Shown one piece after another: positions 11,311-42,508 of a DNA stretch of 64,000 bases. Origin of the DNA: Dudresnaya verticillata (Eukaryota). The notes under the pieces were generated by a model that worked only from the letters and a program-made list of their open reading frames with translations, had not been told where the DNA came from and ran no database searches. Each line of letters begins with the position of its first letter. The stretch's first letter is position 1. The position numbers and the translations under genes are program-made. The stretch covers positions 992,001-1,056,000 of the forward strand of contig OZ374561.1 of NCBI GenBank assembly GCA_977862235.1. The letters run 5' to 3'.

Positions 11311-11999
11311 TGTGGTACAATGATCCGCCAGCGGCTGTAAGCACGTACACGTGTTTTGCGCCTATAATGCGCGGGTAATATTTCGCGTGGCATGCGCCTG
11401 TAAGGCGCCGCCCATACTGCCGCCCTGTAAGGCCCGGTGCATTGTTGGCCACCCCATATGGTATTGCTGGGAACAGCACGGCGCCAATGAGATGGCTAGC
11501 CGTGATTGGCTGATTTACCATGGCCTTACGCGCAGGAGCACGCCCGAGTCATAAGCACCTTACGTGCGCCGGGCGGAGTACGACCGCTCACCACCTCATT
11601 GTAATTATTAACGCTAACTTCAATAGCTTAGAATAGGAATAGCGGCGAAGGCGCTTTCGGCCTTCGCCATATTTATTGCCCCCTGACTAGCAGGGGTCTG
11701 CTGAATAGAACCCTACGGTGGGTTTCGGGTCTGTACGCTTTCTTTGGTCTACATGGGCTCACCGTACTCCCCCTTCCAGGTTCTTTACAAGCTTTAGCCT
11801 CGTACGGCTTTGTACTCTACGAGTGTTAGGGTGGCGCCGCCCCTTTTGCCTTTCTTCCAGGCACGCTAGCCTTTTCCCTTTTCCCTCAAAGTCTCTACCA
11901 ACTCCCCATTGAGTTACCCTCGTTAGGGTGTGTGCGCGCACGGGACAGCTGTCCTTGCCGTTTTAGCGGGCTACTGGCTCATCGCGCCATACTACTACA
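11311..11999 (+). repeat. Element A 5' LTR
   Basis: TGTGGTA...TACTACA; direct repeat of 41783-42508. Confidence 0.95.
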
Positions 12000-12018: not shown

Positions 12019-12488
12019 TCGGTTCTGGGTCGATTCCCTTTATTACCTCAACGTCAGTCCATCGCTTTGGAATTTTCAAGGATCGAGTTTTCTCCCTGCA
12101 AGATCTCAAGGTTCGACTTCCTGGCGTTGAAACCCTAGTCGTCCGGGTGACGACGGTCCCTAAGCTTCATATCGAGCGCTGGAGTTACGCCAAATCTAGT
12201 GCAAGCACCCCTACCGCCGTGGCGGTTTAGTAAGTTCAACGAGCACATCCTAGTCGCGGATTGACGCCCCTTCCGGGAGAACCTCAACAGGTTATCGTAA
12301 TACCTGTACAAAAAAATACGTCCTTGTACGGGCTGTGCGGGCGCGCATTGCGGAAAGACCGCGTGGCCAGAATCGCCCGTAACCCCGAGAACGACGGTTC
12401 TGAAGAAGATTGCCCACTTGGAAAATTTTCCCGTCAGGCAACCACAGGACCGATACCCTTCGTTTAGGTCGACAAGACCGACCTGAAC

Positions 12489-15181
12489 ATGCCGACTTCC
12501 AACGGCGAGACCACCCGACCGGGATTGACCAGTCGTGGTGGAAGCCGTTCCGGCAGTCTTTCCTCCGTGAGGACAATTGGGACGAGAACCCGTGCGGCCG
12601 TCGCCGCTCTTGCCCAAAATCCTTTAGTAGGAGAAGTGGAGCGCCCGCCCCGAATGGCGGGCGCGCCAGGAGATGAGGAACCACCTGTTCCAGAGAAGGG
12701 ACAGGCCCCGAATGAAGAAAACACGGTCAGTACCGCTTCCGCAAGCGCCGCCAACTACGGCGCGAATGAGGGTCCTGACCCTAGTATGCCGCCGCCGCCC
12801 ATCAGCCGCGCTAGTCAGCACGGTACGGGCGGACAGGCCCTAGAAGATGTGACGACGTCATCATTGCCCCCGGACATAGGGTTGCCAATGAGAACGAAAG
12901 CCAATTCGACCGACCAACGGTGTTTCTCCGAACGCGAGATAGGCCAGATGGTCGAATTGGGCATCGAAAATGCTCTCGTCACGAGCGTCCGAGCGTTGCT
13001 CGAGAGCCAAGCTGACGAAACCCTCTCGAGGGTGAAGCGTTATTTCGACGACTCAACAGCCCGCCGGGGCGATCAATTGTTGGCAAAGGTCCAAGAAGAG
13101 ATCGATTCTCGATGTCGACAAACCTCCTCTCGAGGAGTAGACGAAGAACGAGTCGAGACCCTACAAGCCCAGGTCGATTCCTTGGGGGACCAATTAGACT
13201 TGGTCCACCAGGAATTAGACCAGGTTACAACGGACGCCGACCGTTCAAGACAAGAAGCCGCTTTGGCTATTTCAGACGCCCAGTTGGGCGTAGACAACAC
13301 TCGTTGTGTTGAACAAGACAGACGCATCGAGCTCCTCCAACAGGAGCTCGATGCGGAGAAGCGTCGAGTCGCTATGATAGCAGCACAAATGCGGCGACTC
13401 AACCGCGAAAGGGAAGTCGTCCCTGAGATAATGCGGCGTCGTTCGGCAGTGCCAAAAGTCACGCGCGACCGTCGCAGAAGGTTACCCCATCACGGGTCAG
13501 GCCACGAATCTCAATACGATGAGGAAATGGCCCGGTGTCCAAATCACCGGGGGTGTAATTGCAGCCGACCGAGTCAACCTCGGTCTCGCCCCGATAGGCA
13601 TTCTAGCCATCGACATGGCGGGGACCCCATCAGGAAGCATATCCTACCTCAGGTCCGTCCGAGGACGAAGCGCCACAGTCAAGAACTTTCTCCAGACCCT
13701 CCTGGTCTTCTTGGAAGGGACCCCGGCGTTCCGGGTTGAAGGAATTGATTCCGAGGAAACCTGCCTTCATACCCGTACTTTCATACAGGAGGTATAGGTT
13801 GTTGAACCTGGATGACTGTGCAATGACTATCGGGGACCCGAAGTCACGGAGACTACGACGAAGAAGATAAAACGGGTGAAGACCGTGATGAGAAGTCGCC
13901 GGTTCGACGGAAGTGACCCAGTATCCATTATTGGATTTCTCGCAACGCTGAAACGACAGCTGGACCAAGCTCACATTAGTGAAGGAGCAGCTATCCTTGT
14001 CATCCCAGAATTTCTGGAGAAAGATGCCAAAGACATGTTTGAAGCGAACTTCGACGCTGCAGGAGATGATAATGATGGATTCACCGAATGGGCCGAGGCC
14101 GTCAATTACCTTCTTCGCACGTGTGCGAAAGACGTCTACATATGTATCGATATCGAGAGGATCGCCTCTAATATGGACACGATGGCACAAGAGCCGAATG
14201 AGGACGAGGTCACCTTCTCTCGACGGTTGCAAAATCAGGCGCGACGAGTCGCTGGGGTCTACACAGAGCAAGACTTAAATAACACGCTTTATTAGGGGTC
14301 TTCTCCCCGCGGTGAAGCCGCTGCTGAGTACTACCTCTCTGGATCCACGTACCGCCCGTTTGGCAGATTATGTCGAGCTCGCCACCGCCCAGGGAGATTC
14401 TCATCGTGCCCTAGTGTGTGGTAGCCGAGCGAAGAAAGCGACCTCGACGCTGCACAGGAAAACCCTCGCGAAGGTACGGACGCACAAACCTGGTCGGGCA
14501 CTGCTCATTCGCCAGTCGAGGCGGTCGGGAGCATCTGACTCCGAATCCTCAAAGAGTAGCGACTTTGAGGACGACAACGAAGATGCCGTCGTCGCGACTA
14601 TATATGAAGAAGCGCCACCATCGACGGCAACCCAATCAGACAGCTGGTCCTCCGGGCAGTACTCCTATAGCCAGCCATATTATGGCGAAGTGGATGCGGT
14701 CATCCAAAACTACAACCATAGGCTCCCAGCCTGGGCTTAGCCAACAAGGACGCAGCGTCCTGGATGGCAGACTGTCGAGGACCAACCAAATGACATCTGC
14801 TTTGAGTGTTATGGCGTCGGCCATAAAAAGCCAAATTGCCCTCACCTGGCGCGTACGGACGAACAGCCTTTTGAGACTCTAAAAAGGAGGCAGTTCCAAG
14901 CGCTCTCGCATGAGCAGAAGGCATGGTTGGCAACTGTAGGGCGACTACCCTACTTCGCAAATGGACCGGCCTCGACAGGCCAAGCGATTGGGCCACCGAC
15001 AGGCACGCGTCAAAATATGGGGACGGGCGCCGGCGGAAATAGGCAAGTTCAATTTCATCCGGGTCTGAATCACCCCATCGACGCGCCAGGGCAAGCGCCG
15101 AGGTCACCAAGACCAGGGTCACGACCCTTTCCGCCACCACCACCGTTACCACGGTTTCCCGCGCTCAAGGCGAAGAACTAG
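12489..15181 (+). pseudogene. gag: Element A gag (frameshifts and stops)
   Basis: Coiled-coil N-terminus, capsid-like FDGSDPVSIIGFL, zinc knuckle CFECYGVGHKKPNC near 14797. Confidence 0.85.
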
Positions 15182-15758
15182 AGAGGGGGAACCGGTTTCG
15201 GTTGACTCGATCACTCAGGTTACATCGGAACCCCCGATCGATTCGCTGAACGCAGCTTCACTAGCACAAGCTTCGACAGCTTCTCCACGGATCGACCGGT
15301 TTCACATGAGAATGTCGCTTCTGTTCCGAAGAACATCTTAACCCGCCCCATGGGCTTACCCCGTGGGCGTACGTATGACGAGTATTGTAAGGACCCAGTC
15401 TGTTCCCTGTCACGCTACAACTATAAAGTTGCTATGTCCGTCGGGACTTCTGTGGACAAACTCACTCGAGTACTATCTGTATTGGATACAGGGGCTGGCC
15501 CTAATCTGATCCGGGCGGACGTTCTTTCTCCGGAAGAAAATAAACGCATCTCGACGAACAGGTCGATCGTCAACTTGACGTCTGCGTCAAGTCATAGACT
15601 AACTACACTGGGAACCATCTCGCTGGTTGTACGCGTGGGCTCATACACGGTTCGACAACCTTTTGTTGTCGTCAAGGCGCTTGCAGTGGATGCCATCCTG
15701 GGATGCACGTTTATCGATACCCACGTCGAGGGTCTACGTGTTCGGAAACAGAACATCG

Positions 15759-16667
15759 TGTGGAGCAGGGGGAGGTGAGCCCTTTTTCGCTGAAAGCGGG
15801 CAGACCAAATACGTCGACCAACGGAGAAACCGCCACCGGCGCTCACCACCGCCGTTGGCGCGCGAACACGTCATCGACGGCTCACTGGGGCGCGCGCGCA
15901 CAATGCGCGCCGCGCGCCACGCGGGCGCTGTACGGTGATGGGCCGACGTGGCGCCCCGGGACACTGTAATACGGATCCAGATGGGATCCGGATCCGGTAT
16001 CCAGATTGGCTATCCGGATCGCCTAAGCTCTAAGATCCGCGCCTGTAAGGCTGCGGGTATTCGCATTGCTGGCCCGATCCGGATGGGATCGGGATCGGAC
16101 AAGTATCGGATTAGATCCAAGGTGCACGCTCTACAGTATGCGCGCGCGCACGGCTGTAAGGCACACGCGTCCACGTGTGCGTGTAAGCACCCGCACAGGG
16201 GGTTGTACAGCAATCTGTCAGGCGCGCGGCTGCATGCGATGGGTGATCTGTCAGACGCACCTCGGGACGACACGTGTCCCGAGTTCCCGCGCTACGCACA
16301 CGCACCGCCGCCGCCGCATCGCCGTACTATACTTAGGTAAGCCGTCCCAGACGTAACAGTAAACGCCCGGGCAAGCCGGCCTTGGTCCAGACTTCCCCGT
16401 TCCGCACGCGCGTACCCTACCGCTGCCTACGGCTAAGCGTCTACCTCCCGTTCTTCCACGTCTACCATCGTCCTTGACGTGTTCCCTTTCTGTTTCCTTT
16501 TCCCTTCCTTCACACCTTCCGCCTCGGGCGTTTACAGTCCTCCCAAGGCGTGTTCCTTTGCTCTACCAACAAGTCGCCCACGGCGGGACCACCCATCGCC
16601 GAGGGCGCAGCTACCCACCGAGCCCCGAACTGCTCGGCGGTCTATCGTCTCAGACGTTTGCACCACA
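15759..16667. mobile_element. Solo LTR B (909 bp)
   Basis: TGTGGAGCA...TGCACCACA termini, TSD CATCG/CATTG; protease resumes KQNI|VLRDG. Confidence 0.9.
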
Positions 16668-19100
16668 CATTGTTCTCCGAGACGGGTCGATACACCCTAT
16701 CCTAAGGCGCCGTTGCGGCATACCCCGTGAAGGTTCACCCTCAGAACCAATGGATGTCCCTCCTTTAACTACCTCGCGACTAATACGAGTCACCGCACGC
16801 ACTAACTTAGCGACGGGTAGTGAGACATGGGTCGCCGTGACCTGCTCGGCCCAAGGAACGCACTTCCTAGAATCATTTCCACGGTTATACGACCGCCAAC
16901 ACGTGGTCGTGACCAACGGTATCGTCGATGTACAATCGAATCGGCTCTTCCACATGAAGGTTGCGAACTTCTCGCCACGCATGCAGCAGCTTCAGAAGAA
17001 TCAAAGCCTCGGAAAGGCTGTACCAGCGCCCACCCGGACGCCGGTGTACGCTGTTTCCATCGAGGAATCTGATCCTGCCCTCAATCCTGACACCTCCGTG
17101 TCCAGTCCTCAACCGGACACATTCCCCGATGTGGGGGGGCGGGACTTGCTGCTGCTCTTGGTAGCGAAGGTGCAAAGCCTGGAATTAAAACAGCAACCTC
17201 TACACCGTCTCCCATGTCAGTCGATGACTTGGCACTGGAGCACCTGTCCGAGCCGGACCGTCGTCGAGTACGAAAAATGCTCCGACCGTTCGCCGGTATG
17301 TGGGACGGCCAGCTGGGAACAATCCAGGTGACGAAGCACCGAATTGAACTACAAGAAGGTTCGAAACCTGTATTCTCGCAACCCTATCGGTCGGGCCCGA
17401 AAGCTAGACAAGTCGAACAAGACGAAGTAAACAAGATGCTAAAAGAAGGCGTTATCGAGCCTGCTCGCACGGAGTTCGCAAGCCCCGTGGTGCTGGTCAA
17501 GAAACCAGATGGGTCCCTACGTTTCTGCGTCGATTACTGCAAGCTCAACGCTATCACAGTGAAAGACACTTACCCTCTCCCGCGGATGGACGAGTGTCTG
17601 GACTCGCTGGGAAACGCCCAATACTTTACGACCTTGGATTGTAATTCCGGGTATTGGCAAATTCCAGTCGAGGAAGATGACAAGCACAAAACGGCTTTCA
17701 CTTGCCATGCCGGATGTTTCCAGTTTTGCAGAATGCCCTTCGGGCTCTGTAACGCTCCCGCGACCTTTCAACGTACGGTTGATATCCTACTCTCCGGATT
17801 CAGGTGGAAAACCTGTTTAGTCTATTTGGACGACATCATTATTTTCTCGACGACGGTCGACGAACACCTCAAACACGTGAAGGACATTCTAGAAGTACTT
17901 CAAGAAGCAGGCGTTTCGCTGAAACTAAAGAAGTGCAACTTCTTCACGAAGAGCGTTGATTACTTAGGGCACGTGATCCGCCCGGGATTGCTAGAAGTGG
18001 CAACCAAGAATACCCAAGCCGTCGAAGGGTTTAAGGAGCCGAAGACTCAGACCCAGTTACGGCCACTTATTGGAATCTGTAATGTGTACAGGCGCTTCGT
18101 GCCTAACTTCACGCGCGTGGCGGCCCCGCTCAACGCACTCCTACAAAAGGATCAGGGCTTCGAGTTGCCAACGTTCGACGAACGTCAGCGAGAAGCGTTT
18201 GAACTTCCCAAGAAAGCGTTAGTCGTTCCGCCGATACTGCGGATCCCTCAAGAAGGTAAGGCTCTCTCCGTCGACACGGACGCCTGTGATTACCAAATCG
18301 GTTGCGCATTGATGCAAATAGAAGAGGATGGCACCCGACATCCCATAGGGTTTTGGAGCCGCGACCTAACGAAGGCGGAAAAGAACTACTCGGTAGGCGA
18401 GAAAGAATGCCTAGCAGTGGTCTGGGCAACGCAGATGCTTCGTCCATATTTGGAACGGTCCCACTTTGACCTGTATACGGATCATCAAGCTTTTAAATGG
18501 ATGATGAGCATGATCGATGCTTCAGGGCGACTGGCCCGTTGGAGGCTACGCCTGTTGGAATATGATTTCACGGTGCAATACCGAAAAGGAAAGAAGAATC
18601 AGATCGCTGATGCCGTCTCCCGGCTGCCAACCTACGGCTTTACCCAATGGGAACCGGACCTCGAGATCCCCTGTTTTGTAATCGAAGACGATCGAAGGGA
18701 CGCCTGCGACGAACAGTCGCCAACGCGGAAACCACGAACGGGGGCGCAACCCCAACCCTTAGAAGTTTGGGAAGTCGAACCTGAGGACGACGACCCTTCG
18801 GGTGACGAGCAGCTGATAGCGCAAGTGTCCGACAAAGAGTCGAGCCAGAAGGGTCTCTCCCTAATAACGGTGGAGGAGTTGCTCCGAGACCAGAAGTCCG
18901 ATGACTTTTGTATATGGGTCCGACGGAACCTCGAAACGGGAAAACCCGGTTGCTACCTCGAAGATTAGCGCGGGCTCCTAGTGCGTAAGTCATACATCGA
19001 CCGCGCGCTACAGGCACTCGTACCTAGATCTCTGAAAGAAAAGGTTCTACACCTAGCACACTACCCGGATTTGGCCGGCCACCCGGGTGGCACCAGGATG

Positions 19101-20083
19101 TGTGGTGCAAAACGTCTAGGACGGAAAAGCACGCCCGGGCAGTTCGAGACCCGGCGGGTAGCACGTCAGAGACGGTAGGGGTGGTAGAGCATGGACAACG
19201 CCACAAGGCGGACTGTAAACGCCCTGGGCGGTAGGTAGATCGAAACCAAAGAAACGAGACAAGACGGAAATGGAAACACGTCAACGACGGTGTTGCACGT
19301 GGAGGGACGGTGGTACCGACGCTTTGCCTAACGGAAGCGGTGGCGACGCACACACTAGCGGGAAGGGGCATTCGGCTACCAAGGCCATAAAGGGGGAAAA
19401 CAAAAGGGGATACACGTCAAAGACGGACATTGACGCGGAAGCGCGATCGTCGCAACGCGTAGCCAACGTCGGTAGCGGCAGTGACGCTAACGAGCGAAGG
19501 GGCGAAGTGTGAAGGCAGACCGGCTTGCCGGGGTTTACTGTGACGTCCTAGACGGGTTACCTAAGTATTACTACTACTGCGTGGGCGACGGCGGTGGCGC
19601 TGCGGCGCGCGGGAACTCAGGACACGTGTCGTTCCGTCGTGCGTCTGACAAGCGCCCTCGGAATGCAGCCGCGCGCCTGACACATTTTCCCACGCCACCG
19701 CGCGCGCCGCGCTAATGCTTACACCTACACGTGTTCATGCACCGCGCTTACAGACTCTTGGTCCCATTGTCCTCCGCTGCCCTGTGACACGTGCCACGTG
19801 TGCAAGTATGCCACGGGGCGCGGCCGTGCCCCAGTAACTACACCTCACGCGTTCTCTCAACCCGACATTGCCGTCACTATCCGCTGTGAGCGGGAGGTCT
19901 GGTTCTTGACCAAGTTGCCCGACAAAGTCGAATGACTAGCGCCATCGGCGGAAACAGGGATCACGAGCGGGTTCGCGCCTCAAGCTCGATCCCAGTCGCC
20001 AAAGGCGGTAAAAACGTCAAAGACGGGAGGTATCCGTCTAGGACGGTACAGAGCGCCAGTGGCGTGGGATAATTTGCACCATA
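19101..20083. mobile_element. Solo LTR C (983 bp), related to B, opposite orientation
   Basis: TGTGGTGCAAA...TTTGCACCATA termini, perfect TSD GGATG. Confidence 0.9.
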
Positions 20084-20793
20084 GGATGTATCACAACCTT
20101 CGACGTCAGGTATATTGGCCCGAAATGTCTCTCGATGTTTACGCGACAGTAAGAAATTGCGTCAAGTGCGCACAAGAACGCGTCCAGCTTCGACAGCCTA
20201 CTTCCCACATGAAGCTATTCCCGGCAACACTGCCTTTGGAATTCGTAGGGATCGAAATCCTCGGACCCCTGACCCGCTCAGGGAAAGGAAACGAGTTTCT
20301 CTTAGTCATGACTGACAGGTTCTCCAAGCTCACGCGAGCGATACCACTGAAGACAGTTACGGCTTATACCGTAGCCAAGGCTTTCTGTGAGCATTGGGTC
20401 TTCATATACGGTCCACCCCGTTATGTCCTTTCGGACAATGGCTCGCAATTCGCGTCCAAGTTCTTCCTCGCCGTCTGCGACATCCTTCGAATTAGGAATA
20501 TGTTTACGTCGACCTATCATCCTCAGACCAACGGTCAGACCGAACGGTTCAATCGGACCCTCTTAGCGGGTTTGCGACACTTCATCGCTGAGGACCAGAA
20601 GGACTGGGATGAATTCACTTCGGCGTTGACGTACGCGTACAATACTACTGTACATCGGGCTACGGGCCTGGCGCTTTTCGATTTGGTGCTATCTAATCCA
20701 CCAACATCCATCTTGATGGAACAAGCAGAGTCGGTGAACGTCGATCGCATTCCGGCGACTAACGTCAAGAAGCGGTTAACAGCTCGCTTGGAG

Positions 20794-23048
20794 TGTAGTA
20801 TCTCGAACGACACCACCGCGTACGGCAGCCGGGCGATCGTAGAGTATTTGGCCACAAACCTTCGGTAGACATTGCAAGCTCCCAAGAAGGACCGGAGTTC
20901 CGTAAGGGTACCTGGAAACGCGGCCTCTTGAATGGCCTTGGTTCCTTGCATGGCCATACTCAGCTTCCCGGGGGGTCACCACGTGACCTAGGTAATCTAC
21001 TTTGGCCTGGAAGAACGAACACTTCTTCAGCTTCAATGTAATACCGGCCGCCTTCAACAAGGTAAGCACCTCGTCTAGATGGCCCAAGTGATCCTCCACA
21101 TTCTTAGAAAACACTATGACTTCGTCCAAGTAGATGAGACATATTTGCCAACGGACGCCGGACAAGACTATATCAAGCGCACGCTGGAATGTGGCCGGTG
21201 CGTTCTTCAATCCAAATGGCATTCGATTATACCGGAATGTCCCCAAACGGGAAGTGAAGGCCGTCTTATCCTTATCTTCTTCGGCCACTGGTATCTGCCA
21301 ATAACCGGAGTTACAGTCCAACGTAGAAAACACGGCCGCATCTCCAAGGGAATCTATGCAGTCATCCATGCGTGGGAGCGGGTATGCGTCGCCAACTGTC
21401 TTCGCGTTGAGTCGGCCGTAGTCGACACAAAAGCGGAGAGTGCCATCCTTTTTGGGCACCATGACAATTGGCGAAGCCCATTCGCCATGCGATGGCTCTA
21501 TCACTCCAGCCTCCAACTTCTTCTTAATGTCGGCCTCAGCGATCGCACGCAAGGCTGGTCCTTGTCGGTAGGGCATGGCTCTTATTGGCCGTGTTCCATC
21601 CTCCAAGTCTATTCGGTGTTCGGTGGCCATGATCTGTCCCAAGGAACCGCCCCACATCGCACTGTGTTTCTCCAGAATGGCCATTATCTTTTTGCGTTGC
21701 TTCTTGTCCGGGATGTGATCGAGCTTGATCTTGTCCCGCCATTCTTCTGCGTCGTTTCTGGGTATCTCTGGTTCCGAGGACTTGTCCTTTTCTTGGCCGA
21801 CCTCTTCTACTTCTACTTCACTAATGTCCTGCTCCACCAGAGGGGTGAGTCCAAGTACATTGGCCATATTTTCCACGCTCTGTCGGTGTGGAGTCAGGAT
21901 TGCCATGGGGTGACGGACGGCGTAGCCGACTACCGTACCCTTTGGTAATAAGACATCCTTTCGTCCCCAGTTGGCCAGCATTACCTGGAATGGCTTCTGC
22001 GGCCGAACTTCTGCAACTCCATTGGCCATTCGCGTATGGTGCCGGAAGCTCAAAGAATGTTTGGGCTCTAACACGCATAACCCCCGGCCGTCACTGCGAA
22101 CAGACACGGTAGCCTGTTGACCTCCCGTATGGTCAGACCTTTCGTCAAGCGTACAGTGGCCGCGTAGTGTCGTGGAGGCTTGCGTTCCGTATTGGCCGAA
22201 TTGGAATTACCACCCGGAGGCGGGGCCCCCTTCGCAGGGCCCCTTCTAGGTCGGGAGACCAGTGTAGTATCTCGAACGACACCACCGCGTACGGCAGCCG
22301 GGCGAGACCCCAAGAAGACCCAAAAGACCTGTCGGATTTCGTGGCAAAACGGCCGAACGTAGAACGGACCTGCGCACCGGTAGCAAATGCGGTAGAGCGG
22401 GAGCGCGCAGACGAAGTCGCGGCCAAAAACCTGGATGAGCAGCGGAAAATGGCCGAGTTGGGAAAAGGTTGCAAAACTTTACTGCCAACCTCTGGCGGGA
22501 CGGCTTCGTACCTATTCTGGCCAAGCCGTGGTTTGTGGCCGTCTAAGTAGGCCCAAAATCGGCCACTAGAGCTAATCTAGAGCTATTCTACATATTCTAC
22601 AGTTAGTGGCCGAGGTTACTCCCCGTCGGCCATAATATCTACTTGTATTCCGGCGTCGGGCCAATATTGTACCCTTACCAGACTAAACCAAGTACTTGTT
22701 CGTTAGTGGTTGGCCAAATGAGTTAGATTTTCCCTTGATTTTTCTGCTGTCTTTTGCTTGATTTCATGCGCGGCCAAATCCAATTTCCTTTCCGCACTTG
22801 CTTCCAGATCCGATCACACCGATCATACGTGTACAGCGAGCCACGTGGTGCGCTTGGGTGTCGTAGGTGGCCACGTGTGACACACGTGTACACTTGTTGG
22901 ACACGTGTGCCTCTTGCGCATTGTTCACCGTCGCCCGCTCGGCCGCACTGTCGTCGGTTGGCCAAACGTATCATTCTGATTGGGCTGGCTGTCCCACTTG
23001 GCCCGGCCGGTTACGCCCGTTTTGGAGGCCCCTTGGCGTTGCGCCACA
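20794..23048 (-). mobile_element. Internally deleted Gypsy element D
   Basis: TSD TGGAG, full 5' LTR 22263-23048, PBS 22244-22261, RT fragment, and only about 43 bp of 3' LTR (20794-20836). Confidence 0.9.
20837..22107 (-). pseudogene. pol: Element D pol fragment (RT)
   Basis: RFCVDY, LDCNSGYWQ, MPFGLKNAPATFQR; catalytic motif mutated to YLDE. Confidence 0.9.
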
Positions 23049-24039
23049 TGGAGAAGCTGATGGATACGGCGTTGCCTCGAATGAAATTAGCGCAACGGCG
23101 CTATGAAACTAATTTCAATAACCGAATCAGGCCTGCTAACCAGAGGGTAAGAACCGGATCGTGGGTGTTCCTAAAAAGGGAAACGAAGGTGAAGGACGCT
23201 TCAGGTGTGGCCCGCGAAGGGAAGTTGTTCCCTAAGGCTCTCGGGCCGTATAAGGTTCTAGAACGTGGAACGCACGTTGTCGTTCTAGACATCAAAGGAG
23301 ATAGAGAGACGATATCTCTGGACCGGGTTACCTCGGCCCCCTCGCCGCATGAAGAACCAAGCGCGCAGGGTCAAGACCCTTCAGTAGTGGGCCTCATGCC
23401 ACAAGGCGCATATGCGGATAGCGATCCTCACACTCCCGAGAGACAGGGAGTTACCGATATTACGGATAATCCGACTCTCGCGGTGCAGCCTGCTGACGGG
23501 ACATCCATACCAAGTCCCGAAGAGACAGTGGCTGCGGCCCCTTCCGATCCGGATCGCGATCCTGAAACCGCCGCGCCCAACACTTCGGCGACAATGCCGA
23601 ACGACACCACCTCCCCGCGGAAGTTTTCTCGTTTTAAGAAAGCGCCGCCGCGCGAGCGAGTTTACGACCGTATTGTGTCGTACGACGCTGATCGACTCCT
23701 CTACCGCGTTCGGTGGTTTCAGCTCCCAGCCTCCGAAGACACCTGGGAGCCCAAGGAACATCTTCCTCATAACTTGGTGGCAAGATACCATCGAGTCAAA
23801 GGGGTCGCTCTCCCGTAATAAGCGTCTCACGCTAGGTCATCGCTCAAGAAGAGCAAGTTCGCCGAGAAGAGGCTAGATCTGGCCCCGCAAACTCAGGTGG
23901 CAGTTGCGAATAAGCGCCTAACGAGGTTAACCCATTGTGGATGACGAGCACTAAGCTCTGCAGTAGCGATAACAAGAACGGCCAATGGGCCTGTGTATAA
24001 CAATAGGAAATGGGAATGACCATTCCCCCTTTTAAGCTG

Positions 24040-24495: not shown

Positions 24496-25271
24496 TGTGG
24501 TGCAACGCCAAGGGGCCTCCAAAATGGGCGCAACCGGCCGGGCCAAGTGGGACAGGCAGCCCAATCAGAAAGATACGTTTGGCCAACCGACGACAGTGCG
24601 GCCCAGCGGACGCCGGTGAACATGCGCAAGAGGCACACGTGTCCAACAGGTGTACACGTGTGTCACACGTGGCCACCTATGACACCCAAGCGCACCATGT
24701 GACTCGATGTACACGTATGATTCGTGTGATCGGATCTGGAAGCAGGTGCGGAAAGGAAATTGGATTTGGCCGCAGGTGAAATCAAGCAGAAGACAGTGGA
24801 AAAATCAAGGGAAAATCTAACTCATTTGGCCAACCACTAACGAACAAGTACTTGGTTTAGTTTGGTAAGGGTACAACATTGGCCCAACGCCGGAACACAA
24901 GTAGATATTATGGCCGACGGGGAGTAACCTCGGCCACTAACTGTAGAATAGCTCTAGATTAGCTCTAGTGGCCGATTTTGGGCCTACTTAGACGGCCACA
25001 GACCACGACTCGGCCAGGATAGGTACGAAGCCGTCCCGCCAGAGGTTGGGAGTAAAGTTTTGCAACCTTTTTCCAACTCGGCCATTTTCCGCTGCTCATC
25101 CAGGTTTTTGGCCGCGACTTCGTCTGCGCGCTCCCGCTGTACCACATTTGCTACCGGTGCGCAGGTCCGTTCTACGTTCGGCCGTTCTACCACGAAATCC
25201 GACAGGTCTTTTGGGTCCTCTTGGGGTCTCGCCCGGCTGCCGTACGCGGTGGTGCCGTTCGGGATACTACA
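24496..25271 (+). mobile_element. Solo LTR E (776 bp), same family as D, inverted relative to D
   Basis: TGTGGTG...TACTACA, TSD AAAAC; reverse complement of 22263-23048 with scattered differences. Confidence 0.95.
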
Positions 25272-26013: not shown

Positions 26014-28244
26014 CTAATCGGAAAGAAGGTCAATGACCTCATTCTCCTCGAGCGGAGGGTTAGGCCCAGACGGCGCACGCATCGTCGTGACGCGGCGCAC
26101 TTCGCGCACAATGCGCGCTCCACGCCATCGACGAGGGCCGCGACCTCGACGTCCACCAAAGCCTTCACTGGCTGCGCCATCACGTCCTAAACCCTGCCCC
26201 TCGATATCCATGGGAGAGCCATCGCGCTCACCCTCGCCCTCCATGGGCTCTATTTCCTCCTCCTCTTTGAGGAGGAGCTCCGTCTTCACAATGACTTCAG
26301 AAGTTATCGGGTATGACGTCAAAGGCGCACCGGCCGTAACTGGGGCCTCCGTAGCCCCTGCTTCAGCCCCGACGGGCTGCGTTGCGGCAGATTTGTTGGC
26401 CGACGGGACCTCCTGACCTTGGTCATCAGTAGCCTGAGCCACATCGGCGGAAGCCGAAGAAAGCGGCTGAACAGGCGGCACCAAAGTCAGCCCGGGCTGA
26501 ACAACCGGCGGGACCGGGGCTTCTACATTTTCCTCGCGAGGGATCTTGCTGGTATCAGCCTCAGTGGCTTCACGGGCATCAAGCCCCAGGTTGGCGCCGA
26601 TCGCCCCTTGGGCTACAGCAGCTGGACGCTGCGGATGACCCAGCCCTTTTCAGCTCTTCTTGCCAACCTCATCCACCGAGCTCGAAGTCTTGGCCTCAGC
26701 CTTGACACCACCCAACGGCGGAAGCGACCGCAAGTGAGCCCCCAAACGGGCTTGCTCGATAGGACCCGGTGTCTCTATCCAATGAGCCTCGTACTCGGCT
26801 AGAACATCTTCTACCCAATCCGCTAACGAGGACAGGTTCAAATGTGTATGTTCCAATGAACTGCCAAGCGGATGGCTAAACCACGACGGTTAAACAAGTC
26901 GCGGATTTCCGCATCTGCACGATAGTGATGAGGCACAGGTGGCGCGTATGGGCCTTGCGGCTGTCCATCGACCGTGTCATCAAAAGCTGGCACCTCATCT
27001 GGGTTCGAGGGACCCTCATCCCACCATTTGACGCTAACCCAACCGCGGGTGTAGCCGGAACGGCGCTCACCCTCGTCCAACGAGATGGTCCCGCCCTCAC
27101 CAGGGCACTCCGCCATCATGAAGTCGGGCAAGATGGGAGTCCACTTCTCCTGATCGAACTCCACCCAATCACCCCGGTCATAGACGGGCGTGATGTGCCC
27201 AGTGTTTTCGGGCAAGAAGCGGTTCCGCTTAGTGACCCGACTCCAGCGGACCCGCTCCACGAATTACAAGATGGAATCCAGATCCGCGGCGTCTTCCGCG
27301 TTGGCGGTAAAGGCGGTCGAGCCGATAAAGCGGATACGAGCCCGCAACGGCTTACTGATGAAGAATAAGAAGCCCCAACGGGCCTCGTACATGAAGACTT
27401 GGGCCACCATTACGATCCACTCGTGTCGGAAAATTGTCCATAACTGGGATTCGTCGTAAGGGACACTCATCATCTCTAAACCAAGGTAAGCCAGAATGGC
27501 TGGAGTGCCAACGGGCATCGAATATGAAACTTCCAATCCAACTTGGTCATCCGGGACTTGAGGATACTTAATCCGGTAGAACTCTGGACGTATGGACGTC
27601 ACCTCCTGGCAGTGAGTCGGGACGAAACAGCCAGTACGATGGCTATGACGACGCTCGAAGCGTACTAAATCGGTCGGCATGGCCGTCTGCGGATTATCTA
27701 AGGCATAATTGAAGTTTGACGACTCGTCCCACCGGACAATCCGCGCCATCGTATACGGGTAGTTGTCCCTTCCTGGACGAATCAGGGGCCTGGGGTGGCA
27801 GATGATAGCCAGATCGTAAGTACCGGCGTTGTGCACGGCGTTGAGCTCATCCATACGGAAGTTGATAAGCCGTGACAAGGCGGAAGTGTACTGTACCTCA
27901 TGACGAAAACGGGGGTGTGCCAGATCCCACTTCAAGGGGGCGTCCAAAGTCGGCAACTCGCGATTGAGTCCCGTCAAGAGACCCAGACGGTGACGACCGT
28001 GAGCATGTCAAGTGCGGCGTTGCGCACGGCGCGCGCCGCGGCGTCGGATCTCGCTGCGGTCGGCGCCCGCGTTGTTCTTGATGTGGACAAGGTCTGTGCG
28101 CACGCGCCAATCACGGCTATTCTTGATACTAAAAGGCACGCCTGCCTCATCCATCTCCACACCGAGTACACCGACACTCGACCCAGCGGCACCGAATGCC
28201 ATGTGTTGGCTCCCGCTCATCACAAACTCCGGCTCCTGAGCCAC
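26014..28244 (-). pseudogene. Antisense accessory ORF of element A (disrupted), homologous to the F antisense ORF
   Basis: ORFs 28008-28244, 27264-27977 and 26838-27260 share one frame and are separated by single stops. A frameshift then leads to a low-complexity acidic tail. Motif blocks align with 29479-31161. Confidence 0.8.
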
Positions 28245-28560
28245 TACGAGGCTTTCTTGTTCGACTTGTTCACCCGCACCCTAGTGGGCTCTCTTCAACT
28301 TCTCGAGAAAATCTCCTTTCGCCAAGACGGGGCTTCGGGGGTGCGCGGCGCCGCGCGGGCAAAGACGGGATGCTCGCTGCGAAATTACGGACGGCTACGC
28401 CGCTGGGATGCACGCCCCCGCGGGAGCACAGCGTCACGACGCGACGAACCGTCAAGGCAAAGGAAGCACCAGCGGCGCTGTGGAAGATACAAGCCAGGCC
28501 AGATGGAGACAAAGGCACTCAGCGGCCGACGCTAAAAGTGTTGAGGAGTGTGGTACTGGG

Positions 28561-29335
28561 TGTGGTGCAATCCACTCGGTAGAATTGAGGGTGCACCTCA
28601 GGCGGTTCGGGGGCCTGGCGGTAGCAGGTGAGGTAATAGCGGTAGAGCAGGGGAGTAGCCCCGTAGTGCGACTGTAAAACACTACAAGGCCGAGAAAGGG
28701 GGTTACCCTAGAAAGGAAGAGAAAACAAGGGAAAAACAGGAGAAAAACAGGATTCTGTACGATGAAGAAGGGTAGCGGATGTACTGGAGTCCAGCCTAGA
28801 GAGGGAGTCGATAGGGTAGGAGGGTACGTCTCGCTGGGCCCAAACTTAGCCGTTTATTGTATGGGGGCGCACCTCAGGGCCCTAATATACTATGTAGGAG
28901 GCGGGTGCGCCTTGGTGGCGGATTAAGATAGGGGAAGGGGGCGCGCCACTTGGCATTACGTGGCGCGCGCAATTCTATAATTATCTAAAAATATCAACTG
29001 TCAGCCTAGCGGTAGTGCGGCTGAAAGGTGTGCGCCAAGGGGGCGCACGTGTGCACGTGTACGCGTTGTCGCGTTGCGGGGCCATCCTTGCTGGCAGAGG
29101 GCGCCGCGTACTGTCAGGCCGGGTGCCTTACAGAGGCATTTCCCCATTAGCATTGCTGGTGCGTGCGCGTGGTGCCAGAGCTCATTATAGAAATTGGCTC
29201 TGAGCTCAATCACCCGCACAGCGGTTGATCCGCAGGAACCGGCCGTTGGGCGTCCGTCGTCCGCAGTCGCGTGAGCCGCGGGTGGCGGCATTATGAAGAA
29301 TTCTTCAGTAGGGCGCCAAGGCGATTTGCGCCACA
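28561..29335 (-). repeat. Element F 3' LTR
   Basis: Direct repeat of 40712-41486; adjacent to the PPT. Confidence 0.97.
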
Positions 29336-29478
29336 TCTCCCCCCCGTTAAGCGGCGAGTACCCGCACGAGCCCACAGGGACCACTTCCTTCGTCAGGCGT
29401 AAGTTGGCACGACGCCTCGCCATCTCATCTTGCGGGGGTCCGCTCATCGTGTGTGCACAGCGAAGCGGACGTGTTGCG

Positions 29479-31161
29479 ATGCCTCCCCACTTTTCTCTTG
29501 CGGAACTTGACCGCGTGTTACTGCACGCGCCGCAGAGTTCTGCAAGTTATCCGACGCCGGCCGACTTCGAGGGCAAGACGCCGTGGAACGACTTAATCGA
29601 CTTTGCGAATGCACCGTGGATGTTCCACTCTAACTTTGGCAATCATGCCCTGATTGAACAATATGTCTCGAATGATGGTTACTTACCTGGGGGACTGCCC
29701 CTCCGCGTCCTCCGTACGCCTGACTGGCGTCGCCATGGTGCGATTCGGCCGGAGTGGATCCGTCGCCATGGTGGCGAGGACGTCCGCAAGGCGCGACTGC
29801 GGTATGTCCGCTTGGTTCTGCAGCGATTGTCGCGTACGCCGGGTCGAGAGGTTATTCCTCATGGATACTGGTTGGATTTGGGTGTGTATCGCACCAATGG
29901 GGAAATCCCCTATGCGGATGCCCTCGAGAACCTCCCCATCCCGCACGCGTGGGACGGGGTGGAGCCGCGGGTTCGTCAGTCGGCGCTCCTGATGGGCGTA
30001 CAGCTCCGTGCGGAATTCCGCTTCATACGCAAGCGGGCGAACAACGCGTATTGGGATAAGATCAGGTGGGAGCGGCGCGTCCGCTCCCGTCTGGGATTCC
30101 TGGTCACATATCCAAATGTCGAGATCTACGCGATTCACCGCAACTATCGAGATCGATGTTATATTCGGCTGCCAGTCCCGCAATGGGGACTGGTGGAGAG
30201 CTGTGAGGGATTCCTCGTGGAGTTGTCGCCTGCGGTGAGTTACACCATGTCGTCGGTCATCGGCTACCCGCAATCCGGGTTGTGGACCGTCTACTACACG
30301 GAATTCGTGGCGAAGACGGCGACTCAGTGGCTGTGGGAACTTTACGACACGTACCGCATGTGGTACGTGTCGCCCACAGTCCTGGGGTGCTTTGACCAGT
30401 TGGACTTCAAGGTGGTTCTTGGCGGCGTTAATAATGAAGCGGAGTTCCGCGTATTGTTGGGGTTCTTCTCCCAGATCGACTGGGACCGCGACGAACAGCG
30501 CGTCCCGTTGTGTAACAACAAGAGGAGTTCCTCGGCTACGAACTTTTCGCCTGGGCGTGGGCATCCCGTGTGTGGCGATTGGGCGTGGTTCGACCCATGG
30601 ACGCGCACATTTGTTTCTGCGGACCGTGCCGCTTGGTTGCGCAGCCATCCGCGTTCGATGCCACCGGGGCAGCCGCGAGGCTACCTGGTGGACCCCGAGG
30701 CGGTTGGGGTACCAGAGTCGGACGACGAGGAGTATTTCTCGGGTTCAGGTGACAATGGGGAGTTCCCCGAGGCCGATACGATGACGGTCGATGAGCCTGT
30801 GGGGGAAGACTACCCAGCCGTGGCATCGCCGACTACCGCGGATGCCCCGGTTGCGGCGACGGGAGTGGCGGCTGACGCGGGTGGGAGCAGCGACGGCGGC
30901 GCTGTTATTGCGAGCGTGCCAATCGTTCGGCCGCCCGCTATTCGGCTGCCGTCGCCTGACCCGGAAAGCCAGCCTCGCGCACGTCGCGTGCGACTGAGCT
31001 TCAGTCAGCGCATTGCCGTAATCGGCTTTTTGCGTAGAACGGGAATTCCCGAGATTGCCATTCGCGGCAGTGATGAGGAGCTCCTCGAGGTCGCCGTGGG
31101 TAAAGGTTATAACCCGGATGGGGAGGATGAAGCAGGCCCAAGCGGGCCTGCTGATGTCTAG
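29479..31161 (+). CDS. Intact antisense accessory ORF of element F, 560 aa, unknown function
   Basis: Long ORF on the strand opposite gag-pol and not overlapping it. Trp/Tyr/Arg-rich globular region plus acidic low-complexity tail. An upstream in-frame ATG (29293) lies inside the LTR. Confidence 0.85.
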   Translation: MPPHFSLAELDRVLLHAPQSSASYPTPADFEGKTPWNDLIDFANAPWMFHSNFGNHALIEQYVSNDGYLPGGLPLRVLRTPDWRRHGAIRPEWIRRHGGEDVRKARLRYVRLVLQRLSRTPGREVIPHGYWLDLGVYRTNGEIPYADALENLPIPHAWDGVEPRVRQSALLMGVQLRAEFRFIRKRANNAYWDKIRWERRVRSRLGFLVTYPNVEIYAIHRNYRDRCYIRLPVPQWGLVESCEGFLVELSPAVSYTMSSVIGYPQSGLWTVYYTEFVAKTATQWLWELYDTYRMWYVSPTVLGCFDQLDFKVVLGGVNNEAEFRVLLGFFSQIDWDRDEQRVPLCNNKRSSSATNFSPGRGHPVCGDWAWFDPWTRTFVSADRAAWLRSHPRSMPPGQPRGYLVDPEAVGVPESDDEEYFSGSGDNGEFPEADTMTVDEPVGEDYPAVASPTTADAPVAATGVAADAGGSSDGGAVIASVPIVRPPAIRLPSPDPESQPRARRVRLSFSQRIAVIGFLRRTGIPEIAIRGSDEELLEVAVGKGYNPDGEDEAGPSGPADV

Positions 31162-33055
31162 TCGAGCGTCGACATTTGGCGTGGGGCAACCGACCCTGTG
31201 GGAGTAGCCCATGCGCTGTAGTAGGGAGAGCGCCGCCATGATCAGGACTTATTAAAGTTTGCCTGTTGGTTGTGTTGTTTGCCGTAACGCGGCGCGTCGC
31301 TCTTAGGGTAGTTTCCCTCGGCGAGTGGTAATGCGTAGCGACTCGCATAGGCATATGCCGATTGCGGAGGACGAACGCGATATGTCGCCAGTGAGGCGCG
31401 TGCCGTTCAGTGTGGAAGTCCACATTTCGTTAGCGACTTGGAGGTAGGGGTTCCCCCGTCGCTAGAGGTGCGAACGCTCAAGGCCGTTGGCGGCTTAGAG
31501 CGGTAGGTACGGATTTCCGTTTTGGGCATGGCTCGTAATGCCGACTTAGTCGTGAACGACTTGGCGGAGGAGGTGCGGCGTGCTTGCGGTCGTCCGCTAG
31601 GGTGGGCCGCTGTGTATACGCATGGCAGGTGATTGGTGCGGAGTGCGCCGGCACCGTAATTATCCAATGGATATTCATGGAGTGGCGCGCCGCACGTGAC
31701 TTGAATGCCCACTGCGGCGCGTACAGTAGACCAAACGCGCACTGTGGTCTAGCCACATTAATTGGTTATACAGAAGTCTGTTGACGAGCGTGCTTGCCTA
31801 CGTTGCATGCTGACCCGGCTAACCGGACGCAGTTGCGTACGCGCCTCTCTGAGTAGTTAGGCGATAGGGCGATCCAGCCCGTCTAGATAAGTGGAATGCC
31901 ACGCGAACAATGGCCTGCCCACTGTAGGAGCGCCGAAGGGCTTGGGCGCGGATTTTCGGTTGTGTGGAATACCACTTGTTTCGAACGTTTGCGGAGGTAG
32001 GTGCCGCATGGCCACACGCAGGCGGAAGTACACCCTTATCGTTGAGTCAGGGGTACACCGGTCCGCCAGTGGCCCGCGGTGAGTGTTCACGGAATTCCGT
32101 TTCAGCGTAGTTGCTGTTATAGAGTCTGCCGTAGGCAACGGGAGGTGGCTACAGTAGTTGGCTATGGCCTTTGTAGGGGTGTTCCCCATTTGTTGGTCAT
32201 AAAAGGGATTTCGTGGGGCACCACATCGTAGTGAGGTAGGGGGCATCGCGTCGGGTCCGATACGTGCGCCCCATGATGTGGCATTCCACTTTTCGTATGC
32301 GGCCTACGTGAAGGCATCCCCTTTCAAATGGGGGAACCGATGCCTGAGGCAATCGACGATACACGGTAGGGGTTACCGAGTCCCATGTGAGGCATAATTG
32401 CCTTTGGGTTTGCGGGCCCATTCGTGACGGTATCGGCCGACGATTACGGAGTTCCGTTATAAGCATGAGTGCTCTTGGCAGAATCCACCGTGGACGGCTT
32501 TGGCGGCAGCTGCGGGGCGCACTGCGCCGACTGCGCTGTGTTACAGTCCGTACAGGGGTGTTCCCCATTTGCGTTTGCCGACAAGGGCGTTATGGGGCGC
32601 CTCATATGAGCGGGGTCGGGAGCGTTGCGTTGTTTTTGGACGCGAGTGTCCCGTGATGCAGAATTCCGCTTTTCGTGTACAACCTGAGTCGAGGCGTTCC
32701 CCTTCGTATGGGAGAGCGGGCGCTCAAGGCCATTGATGGCTTGGAGCAGTAGTTACGGAATTCCGTTTTGTGTTTGCTCGCGTTATGGACTTAGTCGCAT
32801 TCGACTTCGGGAGTGGTAATGGCGATAGCTTGCGGCAGACCGCTAGGGTGAGTGGGCGCGCGTAGGGAATATCCGATTGGCGCTGCGATAATTAATATCT
32901 CGTCCGACCAATAAGGTGCCATACCGTGGTGTACAGTAGTCCCATTGTACTTGCGCCAACTACTGTAGCATCGACTCTTGGGCCCGACTCTTCAATGTGG
33001 TATGTCCACTCCATTTGTGAGTTAGCAGACGTCTGCACGCTTGCTGTCTTGGGGT

Positions 33056-36000
33056 CTAGCCCACCATGGCCTTTGTAATAGTGGCGGGGACGCCGAGGCA
33101 TCTCCCTTTACAGTAGGAGATGACTTGGCTCCGGGGGAGGTGCTGTATGGGCTCCCACGTATTTTGGGATGACGGGTACCCGTACCATTTCACTTCGAAC
33201 AGAAGCTCTGTATTATCATAACTGTGGTTCGCCACTTTTTCGATGACATACTCGTCACGTGGCGGAGTATCTCCATTGTGTCGACGCCCTGATGACAGGG
33301 TGTCGTCTGGCGCCGGTGCTTGAGGTGGATCCTCTTGCTGAGGGCCTGGCTGCGACGCGCGTGGCGCGACGGCAGCAATACGGCGACTCCGTCTGGGGCT
33401 TGGCGTGCCAAGGGTCACGGTTGCAGCTCGATTGCGGCCTGCCACTTCCGATCCGAGGCTTCGGCTCGCGAGAGGCCGCGTAGGGATTTCCCTAATGCGG
33501 TCGTCAAATGTGACGCTCTTTCTTGATGGGCGTGGAGAATTCTCCTTGGGATGGTCTTGCGTTCTAGACGCACCTGGCGAAACATCGCGTGTCGCGCTGT
33601 CGAGGGCGTGATCCTTCCCATCAACGGGTCGGGTTTCGGCTCTTCTAGGGGACCCTGGCTCGGGGCTCGCGGTTATTCGACGAGTAGACGAGCCTTTGCG
33701 GAGTATATCCGGCTTTGTTGACTCTTGTGGGATATCCACATTATCAAGGGTAGTTCTCGTTGGTTGCGAAAGGGGCTTCCCTTGAGGAGTATGCCCCAGG
33801 GCGGCAGTTGTGCCGGTATCGTGTGCAGGTTGCTGCTGGCGAGGCATTTCCTCTCCTACTGTACCGTCGACGGCCTTGGTGCTTTTCGTAGCGGCGTGCG
33901 GTTGATCCGCAGTGGGGTGCTCATTCGCGTGGGCGTCGTTCGCTGGCACGGATTCCGGCTCCAGACTTGCGGATGCAGGGGTTGGAGTGGGGACGGCGGC
34001 TTCGGCGCGTGTGGTAGGTAGCGAGTGCATTGCGGTAGTCCGCGCGCGGACGCCAGCGGTGCGTCCGGGTACCGTCAGCGGTGGTAAATCCGCCAACCCG
34101 CGATCATTTCGTGGCTGTATGGCTGGTTCCACAGCATGAAAAGTAATTGGGGCATTTTCCCCGCGAGACACAGTAGCTCCGTCAGCGCACTGCATTCGAG
34201 TATGATCATTATTGGGATCGTTTGTTGGCGGTAATTCCGCATCTATCGGATCTGCCGTCCCTTCGGCGTTGGCTTGGTTGGCCGCGTCCCTTGGTGGGGC
34301 GGGTGCCAACACGACTCTGTCGCGGGAAATCCGCTCGTATTCAGGCCCGTCCTTCTCGACTGTGACCGTCTTATCATTTGCGTCACTCACGCGATAGGGG
34401 CCGTCGGCCATAGGCGCCAGTTTGTGTTTCGGGGTATCCTTCCCATAGTACTCCTTGCGTACGTAGACGTAGGAGTCTACTCCGATGACTTCGCGTGAGG
34501 GACGTACCCTGTTATCAAAATTGCGCTTGTATCGCGCTTGTGTCTGGTCAACGCTTTTTGTGGCTGTTGATAGTAGTCCTGTGAGCCAGGACTGCCACTT
34601 GGCGTGGAATGTAGCCGAACTCGGCACTGGTTCCAATGAGGGATGTGCCTCGATGCTTAAAGCGTGTGGAGGTCTGGAAAGTACCAACTGGAAGGGGGCC
34701 AGGTTTGTGGTAGAATGAACTTGCGTATTGTACGCGTAGGTGATGGCATCTGAGAATAAATCCCATTCATGCGGATGGTCCGCAACGTAGTGCAGTAGTG
34801 CGGCGCGCATTGTGCGGTTGAACCGCTCAACCTGCCCATTGCATTGGGGGTGGTAGGTTGTAGTAAAGAGGTTTTTGATCCCCAGAGTTCCACATAACGA
34901 CTGAAACAACTTTGCGGCAAATTGTCCGCCATTATCCGATAGTAGGTACAACGGGGGTCCGTAGACGTAGACCCAATGCGTAATGAACGCTTCGGCAACT
35001 TTCGCAGCCGTAATCTTCTTCATCGGAACTGTCCGAACGAGTTTGGAGAAACGGTCTGTGATGACCAAGAGGAATCGATTGCCTCGTTTCGTACGAATCA
35101 GTTCGCCATAGATGTCAATGGAGACAAACTCCAGGGGTGTTTTGGCTGGAAACAGCTTCATATGCTTGGTATTACGGCGTAGCATAACGCGATTGCGTGC
35201 ACACGTTGTGCAGTTTCTTACGGTGGCGTAACAGTCCACAGCCATGGAAGGCCAGTAGAATGATCTACGGAGTGAGTAATACACCTTGCGACCACCGGGA
35301 TGCCCGGATAGTTTCGGGAAGTGTGCCAGGTGTAGCACACGTGCGTGAAGAGTAAAGGGTATCACGATTTGAGGAAGTGCCTCTCGCGTGCGAATGAGGA
35401 CTCCTGTCTCGTCCAGCGCGAAAGGTAACCCCTCCCCCCCGTTAAGACGAGAACGCAGCGAGGTGCAGAAAGCATCTTCTAATTGCGTTTGAAGAAGTTC
35501 TTCCGTCGTGATGGGGCGCAAGAGCTCAGGTTGGTCGGACGGCGGATTCGCCAGAAGAAGTTGGTCGGAGACTTCGTCGTCCAATTCGAGGAATTCCTCC
35601 TTATCGCAAACGGCGCAGGTTGACGGAGCGTCCGCCTCAACGTGGAAACACAGAATTTCGTCGTCGATATCGACTTGGGTTTCGCCAAGCGTTTGAAGAC
35701 GCGAAAGGGCGTCCGCTTGGGTATTAATGCGTCCCTTCTTGTAGCGGACGTCAAAGTCGAATTCCGACATACGTAGGCGCCAGCGCATTAGGCGCGCGGA
35801 GGGGTCATTAATCTCCATTAGCCAACGAAGAGAGGAGTGATCGGTGTGTATGGTAAACTTTTCCATTTGTAGGTAGGGCCGTAAAGTGGTAACAGCCCAC
35901 ACCAGTGCCAAACACTCCTTCTCGGAAACCGAGTAATTCTTTTCGGCTGCTTGTAGAGAACGGGACCAGTACCCGAGGGGTTCGTGCGTACCGTCGGCGT

Positions 36001-38188: not shown

Positions 38189-38205
38189 AGGGGGTATGAC
38201 CCCGA

Positions 38206-40711: not shown

Positions 40712-41486
40712 TGTGGTGCAATCCACTCGGTAGAATTGAGGGTGCACCTCAGGCGGTTCGGGGGCCTGGCGGTAGCAGGTGAGGTAATAGCGGTAGAGCA
40801 GGGGAGTAGCCCCGTAGTGCGACTGTAAAACACTACAAGGCCGAGAAAGGGGGTTACCCTAGAAAGGAAGAGAAAACAAGGGAAAAACAGGAGAAAAACA
40901 GGATTCTGTACGATGAAGAAGGGTAGCGGATGTACTGGAGTCCAGCCTAGAGAGGGAGTCGATAGGGTAGGAGGGTACGTCTCGCTGGGCCCAAACTTAG
41001 CCGTTTATTGTATGGGGGCGCACCTCAGGGCCCTAATATACTATGTAGGAGGCGGGTGCGCCTTGGTGGCGGATTAAGATAGGGGAAGGGGGCGCGCCAC
41101 TTGGCATTACATGGCGCGCGCAATTCTATAATTATCTAAAAATATCAACTGTCAGCCTAGCGGTATTGCGGCTGAAAGGTGTGCGCCAAGGGGGCGCACG
41201 TGTGCACGTGTACGCGTTGTCGCGTTGCGGGGCCATCCTTGCTGGCAGAGGGCGCCGCGTACTGTCAGGCCGGGTGCCTTACAGAGGCATTTCCCCATTA
41301 GCATTGCTGGTGCGTGCGCGTGGTGCCAGAGCTCATTATAGAAATTGGCTCTGAGCTCAATCACCCGCACAGCGGTTGATCCGCAGGAACCGGCCGTTGG
41401 GCGTCCGTCGTCCGCAGTCGCGTGAGCCGCGGGTGGCGGCATTATGAAGAATTCTTCAGTAGGGCGCCAAGGCGATTTGCGCCACA
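40712..41486 (-). repeat. Element F 5' LTR
   Basis: Adjacent to the PBS; followed by TSD CTGGG. Confidence 0.97.
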
Positions 41487-41782: not shown

Positions 41783-42508
41783 TGTGGTACAATGAGCCGC
41801 CAGCGGCTGTAAGCACGTACACGTGTTTTGCGCCTGTAATGCGCGGGTAATATTTCGCGTGGCATGCGCCTGTAAGGCGCCGCCCATACTGCCGCCCTGT
41901 AAGGCCCGGTGCATTGTTGGCCACTCCATATGGCATTGCTGGGAACAGCACGGCGCCAATGAGATGGCTAGCCGTGATTGCCCTATTTACCATGGCCTTA
42001 CGCGCAGGAGCACGCCCGAGTCATAAGCACCTTACGTGCGCCGGGCGGAGTACGACCGCTCACCACCTTATTGTAATTATTAACGCTATAGCGTATTCCT
42101 ATTCTAAGCTATTGAAGTTATAACTTCAATAGCTTAGAATAGGAATAGCGGCGAAGGCGCTTTCGACCTTCGCCATATTTATTGCGCCCCTGACTAGCAG
42201 GGGTCTGCTGAATAGAACCCTACGGTGGGTTTCGGGTCTGTACCCTTTCTTTGGTCTACATGGGCTCACCGTACTCCCCCTTCCAGGTGCTTTACAAGCT
42301 TTAGCCTCGTACGGCTTTGTACTCTACGAGTGTTAGGGTGGCGCCGCCCCTTTTCCCTTTCTTTCAGGCACGCTAGCCTTTTTCCCCTTTTCCCTCAAAG
42401 TCTCTACCAACTCCCCATTGAGCTACCCTCGTTAGGGTGCGTGCGCGCACGGGACAGCTGTCCTTGCCGTTTTAGCGGGCTACTGGCTCGTCGCGCCATA
42501 CTACTACA
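41783..42508 (+). repeat. Element A 3' LTR
   Basis: Preceded by PPT TAGAGAGGGGG; carries a 34-bp segment absent from the 5' LTR. Confidence 0.95.

Follow-up and report, generated by a model that had tools for sequence, protein, structure and literature searches.

Genes antisense to gag-pol in two nested elements

The window considered here, a stretch of 64,000 nucleotides of Dudresnaya verticillata (contig OZ374561.1, positions 992,001 to 1,056,000), holds a nest of Ty3/Gypsy elements, and the two that we call A and F each carry a gene that is antisense to gag-pol. In F, this gene is an intact open reading frame (ORF) of 560 aa (29479..31161, plus strand), lying between the chromodomain and the 3' long terminal repeat (LTR, 28561-29335), 144 bp from the LTR; its product comprises a core (about residues 20-405), an acidic linker and a weak two-helix module (residues 517-538). 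This frame stays open as far back as 29275, and an in-frame ATG occurs within the LTR at 29293. At 607 aa, the longest frame in this 3.7-kb region of F exceeds those of 300 shuffles (median 171, maximum 350). In A, a divergent member of the same family lies on the minus strand (~26014..28280). It is broken by three in-frame stops (28010-28008, 27266-27264 and 26652-26650) and one frame change between 26889 and 26841, and the insertion of F separates it from A's 3' LTR. The codon at 28244 is GTG and an ATG first appears at 28220; the tail of the protein ends with a VIDL motif resembling a SUMO-interacting motif (SIM). An earlier note on this DNA described a large antisense ORF in both elements, which is right for F; A has a broken gene and not one ORF.

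The same note proposed that the two antisense proteins are homologous, and the reconstruction bears this out. With X placed at A's stops, the proteins align with a Smith-Waterman score of 122 (shuffles 39.8±5.6), which none of 1000 shuffles reached. Since the antisense/antisense pair is the only one of 36 A/F frame pairs to align (z 14.7; z at most 2.7 for the other 35), the likeness is not a shadow of a sense gene. A and F have 79 residues in common among the 348 aligned in the family alignment, and a profile built without window sequences picked out A's 247-aa piece at E 1.2e-25 among the 1528 ORFs of the window. All ten peptides quoted in the note are present in the translations, and the first, third, fourth and fifth of its co-linear blocks stand. 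The second was mis-paired: the D-x4-R-x3-E-x2-Y-x3-L of A pairs with D133/R138/E142/Y145/L149 of F, not with F 149-166.

A protein family with a predicted rigid core

A phmmer search of 1.84 billion representatives (clusters at 50%) found 422 clusters at E<=1e-3, 182 at E<=1e-10 and 54 at E<=1e-30; the best 150 of the 422 matches, at 26-49% identity, were listed. Among 21 clusters that were looked up, one carries an organism name (Agarophyton chilense; annotated protein CAN8068179.1, 42% to F), one is a "hypothetical protein", and the others are ENA, JGI or Logan records. Because only this one of the 21 names an organism, the red-algal assignment of the family rests on one record.

Twenty-five core columns are conserved at 85% or more, mostly as W, Y, P, G, R, E or D; F keeps all 25 and A keeps 16. 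D133, E142, E198, E240, E275 and D367, together with five arginines, are conserved at 74% or more and are retained even in the divergent A. In a tree built from 65 near-full cores, after 87 shorter rows had been dropped, A sits on a long branch, well away from F. No core column reaches 70% Cys or His among 150 proteins, so there is no conserved Cys cluster. This conservation pattern, together with the intact frames, suggests that the antisense protein is under selection. The core was modelled with a predicted local distance difference test score (pLDDT) of 93.7 and a predicted template modelling score (pTM) of 0.91, the pLDDT of five models ranging from 92.9 to 93.7. It is thus predicted to be a single rigid domain of about 385 residues; the tail behind it would be disordered and carry small interaction modules. 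No match to the predicted core turned up among the solved structures searched, and it may represent a new fold.

The core could be an enzyme of an unrecognised fold, for instance a metal-dependent modifier of nucleic acid or protein that the tail brings to its target. We hold this as a minority view. The six acidic residues and five arginines that survive in A would fit it, a rigid domain of 385 residues seems oversized for an adaptor alone, and enzymatic accessory genes are described for red-algal DNA transposons (bioRxiv 2025.02.11.637652). However, salt bridges explain the acid/Arg pairs equally well, and the core lacks a conserved Cys, His or Lys.

Linkage to one Gypsy lineage

Scanning for junctions of primer binding site (PBS) and LTR yielded ten loci: five Gypsy pieces (four in a second genome, G001, and one in a third, G002), four bacterial chance matches and one other. 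The family profile gave three matches in G001 and none in G002. Two G001 elements, L019 and L020, carry gag-pol-chromodomain on the plus strand and an intact homologue on the minus strand (853 and 1007 aa, stop to stop) that lies 1667 bp and 701 bp, respectively, after the pol stop. A third, L025, has gag-pol-chromodomain on the plus strand and the C-terminal half of a homologue on the minus strand, cut by the contig end and tied to the family by tblastn (E 3e-63 to L020); in all three, the homologue lies 0.7-1.7 kb past the pol stop. A further locus, L017, has a homologue without element context. The chromodomain (PF00385) scores E 7e-8 in L020, 2e-7 in L025 and 3e-4 in L019 (20.9 bits, below the cut-off of 25.1). 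Homologues are present in three of the four G001 lineage elements with at least 700 bp beyond pol, and the fourth (L024) ends 2.1 kb past pol, before the LTR; none was seen in L026 and L027, G001 elements of other lineages. A profile of the L017, L019 and L020 proteins matched the family core (probability 98.7, E 3.9e-16 over 238 columns) and, among the 1528 window ORFs, ranked F first (E 1e-5) and A second (E 0.011). G001 (loci L008, L009, L012, L014, L017-L030) is filed as bacterial and contains 14 eukaryote-type Gypsy reverse transcriptase (RT) matches, an apparent host contamination of the bin.

In an RT tree (21 rows without reference chromovirus RTs; FastTree, rooted on L005, no topology test), A, F, nine G001 elements and two further window elements, B and G, share one branch with support 1.0, and the antisense gene occurs on both basal branches and in the clade of L019, L020 and L025. 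In five elements from two genomes (A, F and these three), a long ORF lies between pol and the 3' LTR and runs antisense to gag-pol, at the same position and in the same orientation. The linkage to Gypsy 3' regions seen by the earlier note extends to a second genome, inheritance from an ancestral gene would explain the pattern most simply, and we are close to certain that the family is real and tied to this lineage.

Element G, which adjoins the A/F nest (50156-63526, minus strand, target site duplication (TSD) CATGG), has an antisense ORF at the same position, in two overlapping frames (51324..54124, plus strand). It spans about 930 codons, with Ala/Pro-rich ends, a globular-looking middle and an apparent coiled coil. 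No homology to the A/F family was detected and no homologue was found; it is either a different, replacement gene or a relative that has diverged beyond recognition.

That G has no detectable homologue might be taken as a sign that the gene was captured from the host, or rides along as a passenger, without serving the element, as might the annotated Agarophyton chilense member. This seems to us highly improbable, as the gene recurs at one position and in one orientation in five elements, the RTs of which are 57-60% identical to that of F, its frame is intact in F, L019 and L020, and 422 clusters at 50% represent a diversity unlike that of a single-copy host gene.

Tails and nuclear-type motifs

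Directly after the core, the tails carry an acidic linker (median charge -8 over the first 60 residues), and acid runs occur in 14 of 63 tails (shuffle mean 3.9). The acidic low-complexity tail of the earlier note exists as an acidic stretch, mostly this linker and not the entire tail. Of 63 tails, 34 contain a two-helix module of about 32 residues (reversed decoys gave E>=5 at best), which is weak in F. Its predicted fold has a pLDDT of 85-91, its structure matches are tied and generic, and it may resemble the HEH (SAP/LEM/Rho-N) type. SIM-like motifs are found in other family members, including A and the G001 proteins; the G001 proteins, in addition, have basic C-termini and what looks by eye like a coiled coil. 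A loose SIM pattern is present in three of the four G001 proteins (6 of 2000 shuffles), which were fetched after the motifs had been defined. K[KR]x[KR] falls within the last 35 residues of all four (0 of 2000 shuffles), a window chosen after viewing them. The SIM, SUMO-site and nuclear localization signal (NLS) patterns used were consensus motifs.

These basic ends bear on the idea that the protein is a structural component of the particle or a cell-to-cell movement factor, possibly from an unknown virus. The gene sits where env-like genes do, and the predicted fold is rigid, loop-rich and rich in Trp, Pro and Arg, with little regular secondary structure at both ends. Nevertheless, NLS-like ends in all four G001 proteins, the antisense orientation and the rarity of membrane-span-like hydropathy peaks (>=1.8 in only 3 of 65 proteins) speak against such a role, which appears unlikely; an env-like gene would be in sense orientation and encode membrane spans.

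Proposed role

We propose that the antisense ORF is the third gene of one chromodomain Ty3/Gypsy lineage, probably red-algal, and that its product works in the nucleus as an accessory factor, on either the chromatin of the element or its integration complex, a reading to which we give roughly an even chance. The gene would have an antisense mRNA of its own, transcribed from the side of the 3' LTR as has been reported for gene23 of maize Grande, with the 3' LTR of F (28561..29335) as a candidate promoter. The protein could enter the nucleus via its basic motifs and use SIM-like motifs or the two-helix module to dock on silencing or chromatin proteins that carry SUMO, while the conserved Arg/Trp/Tyr/acidic core would bind element nucleic acid or a host silencing factor. 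Elements steered by their chromodomain into silent, TE-dense chromatin (TE, transposable element) might then still be expressed or integrated. Weighing against this proposal, post-hoc choices and the relatedness of the proteins weaken the tail-motif counts. Bolder, and tentative, is the idea that a red-algal chromodomain retrotransposon lineage encodes an antisense new-fold protein that counters SUMO-dependent chromatin silencing, like VANC or viral SIM-bearing anti-silencers, paired with a chromodomain targeting silent chromatin.

SIM-like motifs fit the recruitment of repressors as well as their inhibition. The gene might be a device of self-restraint, its protein or antisense RNA damping the element's own copying. 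The convergent antisense layout can yield double-stranded RNA, and antisense retroviral genes are regulatory (PMC7264820, PMC11963269). We find this rather improbable: a role of the RNA only would leave protein-level conservation in one frame unexplained, and the sign of the effect cannot be read from sequence.

Relation to known antisense and accessory genes

Boty and Chlamydomonas REM1 are probably chromodomain elements. The earlier note knew of no antisense gene in chromodomain elements, which was too strong, since one between pol and the 3' LTR has been described for the fungal Boty (PMC7264820). Antisense ORFs (aORFs) of unknown function have been listed for Grande, RIRE2, Retand, PvRetro13 and Boty, GENE23 of Grande being nuclear and antisense-transcribed (PMC7264820). 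The aORF-3R known from Tat/Retand elements of plants (gene23 in maize Grande, rice RIRE2, TRP28 with PF04195 in Silene Retand) is likewise a lineage-wide antisense ORF between pol and the 3' LTR, in a long 3' region with repeats, with unknown function and a proposed nuclear role (PMC7264820, PMC11963269). Unlike these non-chromovirus elements of flowering plants, the present lineage has a chromodomain in its integrase and its host is probably a red alga. PF04195 and PF10536, the domains of Retand TRP28 and of the Ogre plant mobile domain aORFs, gave no match in the family at the sequence level (0 of 87 family members at E<=10; 0 of 4 G001 proteins at E<=0.001), in agreement with the earlier note, which had recognised no known domain. 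A similar layout outside plants is that of brtn of Botrytis Boty/BcGypsy1, an antisense gene at the same position of a Gypsy element (PMC7264820; PMC8365987); the core described here has about 385 aa and no conserved Cys.

Accessory genes are also known from the Plavaka DNA transposons of red algae (PAG1-3) and from VANDAL elements (the VANC anti-silencing proteins). According to bioRxiv 2025.02.11.637652, PAG genes are mobile between TE families, have a proposed chromatin role and include PAG1, without a known domain; the methylase/SET and ParB/2OG domains of PAG2 and PAG3 were not found in our family. Chromodomain Gypsy lineages of Ectocarpus are reported to be unrelated to chromoviruses (PMC12477816), and a report of 2012 gave no retrotransposon chromodomains for three red algae (PMC3350952).

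In the titles, abstract openings and passages covered, we found no description of this antisense gene in red-algal Gypsy elements. The layout is already known; the lineage-wide protein family is undescribed and has a candidate new fold. The origin and function of antisense accessory genes in LTR retrotransposons are stated open questions (PMC7264820), and those of plants are mostly heterogeneous (PMC6317226). Here, a single family spans a lineage and numbers hundreds of diverse members, some of them intact; with its confident model and the invariant residues now defined, its function is open to direct tests. It may also help to show how TEs evade silencing in red seaweeds, a group with little-studied chromatin.

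Anatomy of the nest

The host elements have the features of Ty3/Gypsy: gag followed by RT, RNase H (RH) and integrase (IN), TG...CA LTRs, a PBS, a polypurine tract and 5-bp TSDs. RT-RH-IN-chromodomain is present in A, F and G, with PF00385 at the integrase C-terminus (E 1e-7, 1e-9 and 5e-6, respectively). One PBS is common to all four Gypsy elements of the window (4 matches; 0 in 100 shuffles); presumably it fits tRNA-Tyr, by the C1-G72/A73 identity rule. A and F are 55% identical over pol and 60% over RT-RH. Their LTRs gave no blastn match to each other and do not align, in line with the earlier note, which had called them unrelated.

Element A lies on the plus strand between a 5' LTR (11311..11999), followed by the PBS, and a 3' LTR (41783..42508), with TSD CGCTG/CACTG; over 689 aligned bases the LTRs show 16 mismatches, with a further 37 bases in gaps. 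Its gag-pol-chromodomain region (12468..23818) is broken, with insertions interrupting it. A holds at least five insertions, three of them from the same chromodomain lineage: B, an internally deleted element (20794..23048, minus strand, TSD TGGAG) within the integrase; a solo LTR of B's family (24496..25271, plus strand, TSD AAAAC) in the 3' spacer; two smaller inserts in pol; and the entire F. The two pol inserts (16212-16568 and 19182-19686) are related, 71-74% alike and in opposite orientation, and a scan for 5-bp TSDs at them found none. The span of A (11311-42508) is a visible insertion hotspot.

F (28561-41486, minus strand, TSD CTGGG) sits between the start of A's antisense ORF and A's 3' LTR. 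Its TG...CA 3' LTR, upstream of the antisense ORF, differs from the 5' LTR (40712..41486) by 2 mismatches in 775, and the 5' LTR is followed by the PBS (match 40695-40714). Gag and pol (RT-RH-IN-chromodomain) run from 40693 to 33056, and a non-coding spacer (31162..33055) reaches from the stop of the antisense ORF to that of pol; it contains two direct repeats in a state of decay (74% and 68% identity). The element ORFs of A, F and G have CpG observed/expected ratios of 1.03-1.20, and even the oldest copy shows no CpG depletion.

Other features of the window

The stretch 42436-45849 encodes an RT (PF00078) and then an ORF resembling RNase H plus tyrosine recombinase (by eye), as in a DIRS/Ngaro-like element. 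This may have been split by the insertion of A, because its end matches 10291-10543 at 95%. The 5' LTR of A cuts a 287-aa frame that has no Pfam match (10515-11378). Perfect palindromes, 48-62 bp long, lie at 45883-45999, 48282-48339 and 42094-42147. The stretch 47675-48556 matches DUF6570 (E 2e-12), which suggests a Helitron-like remnant. Finally, 6544-8228 contains pieces of a host gene with Cys-rich ephrin-receptor-like/TNFR-like repeats (PF07699, E 1e-21).
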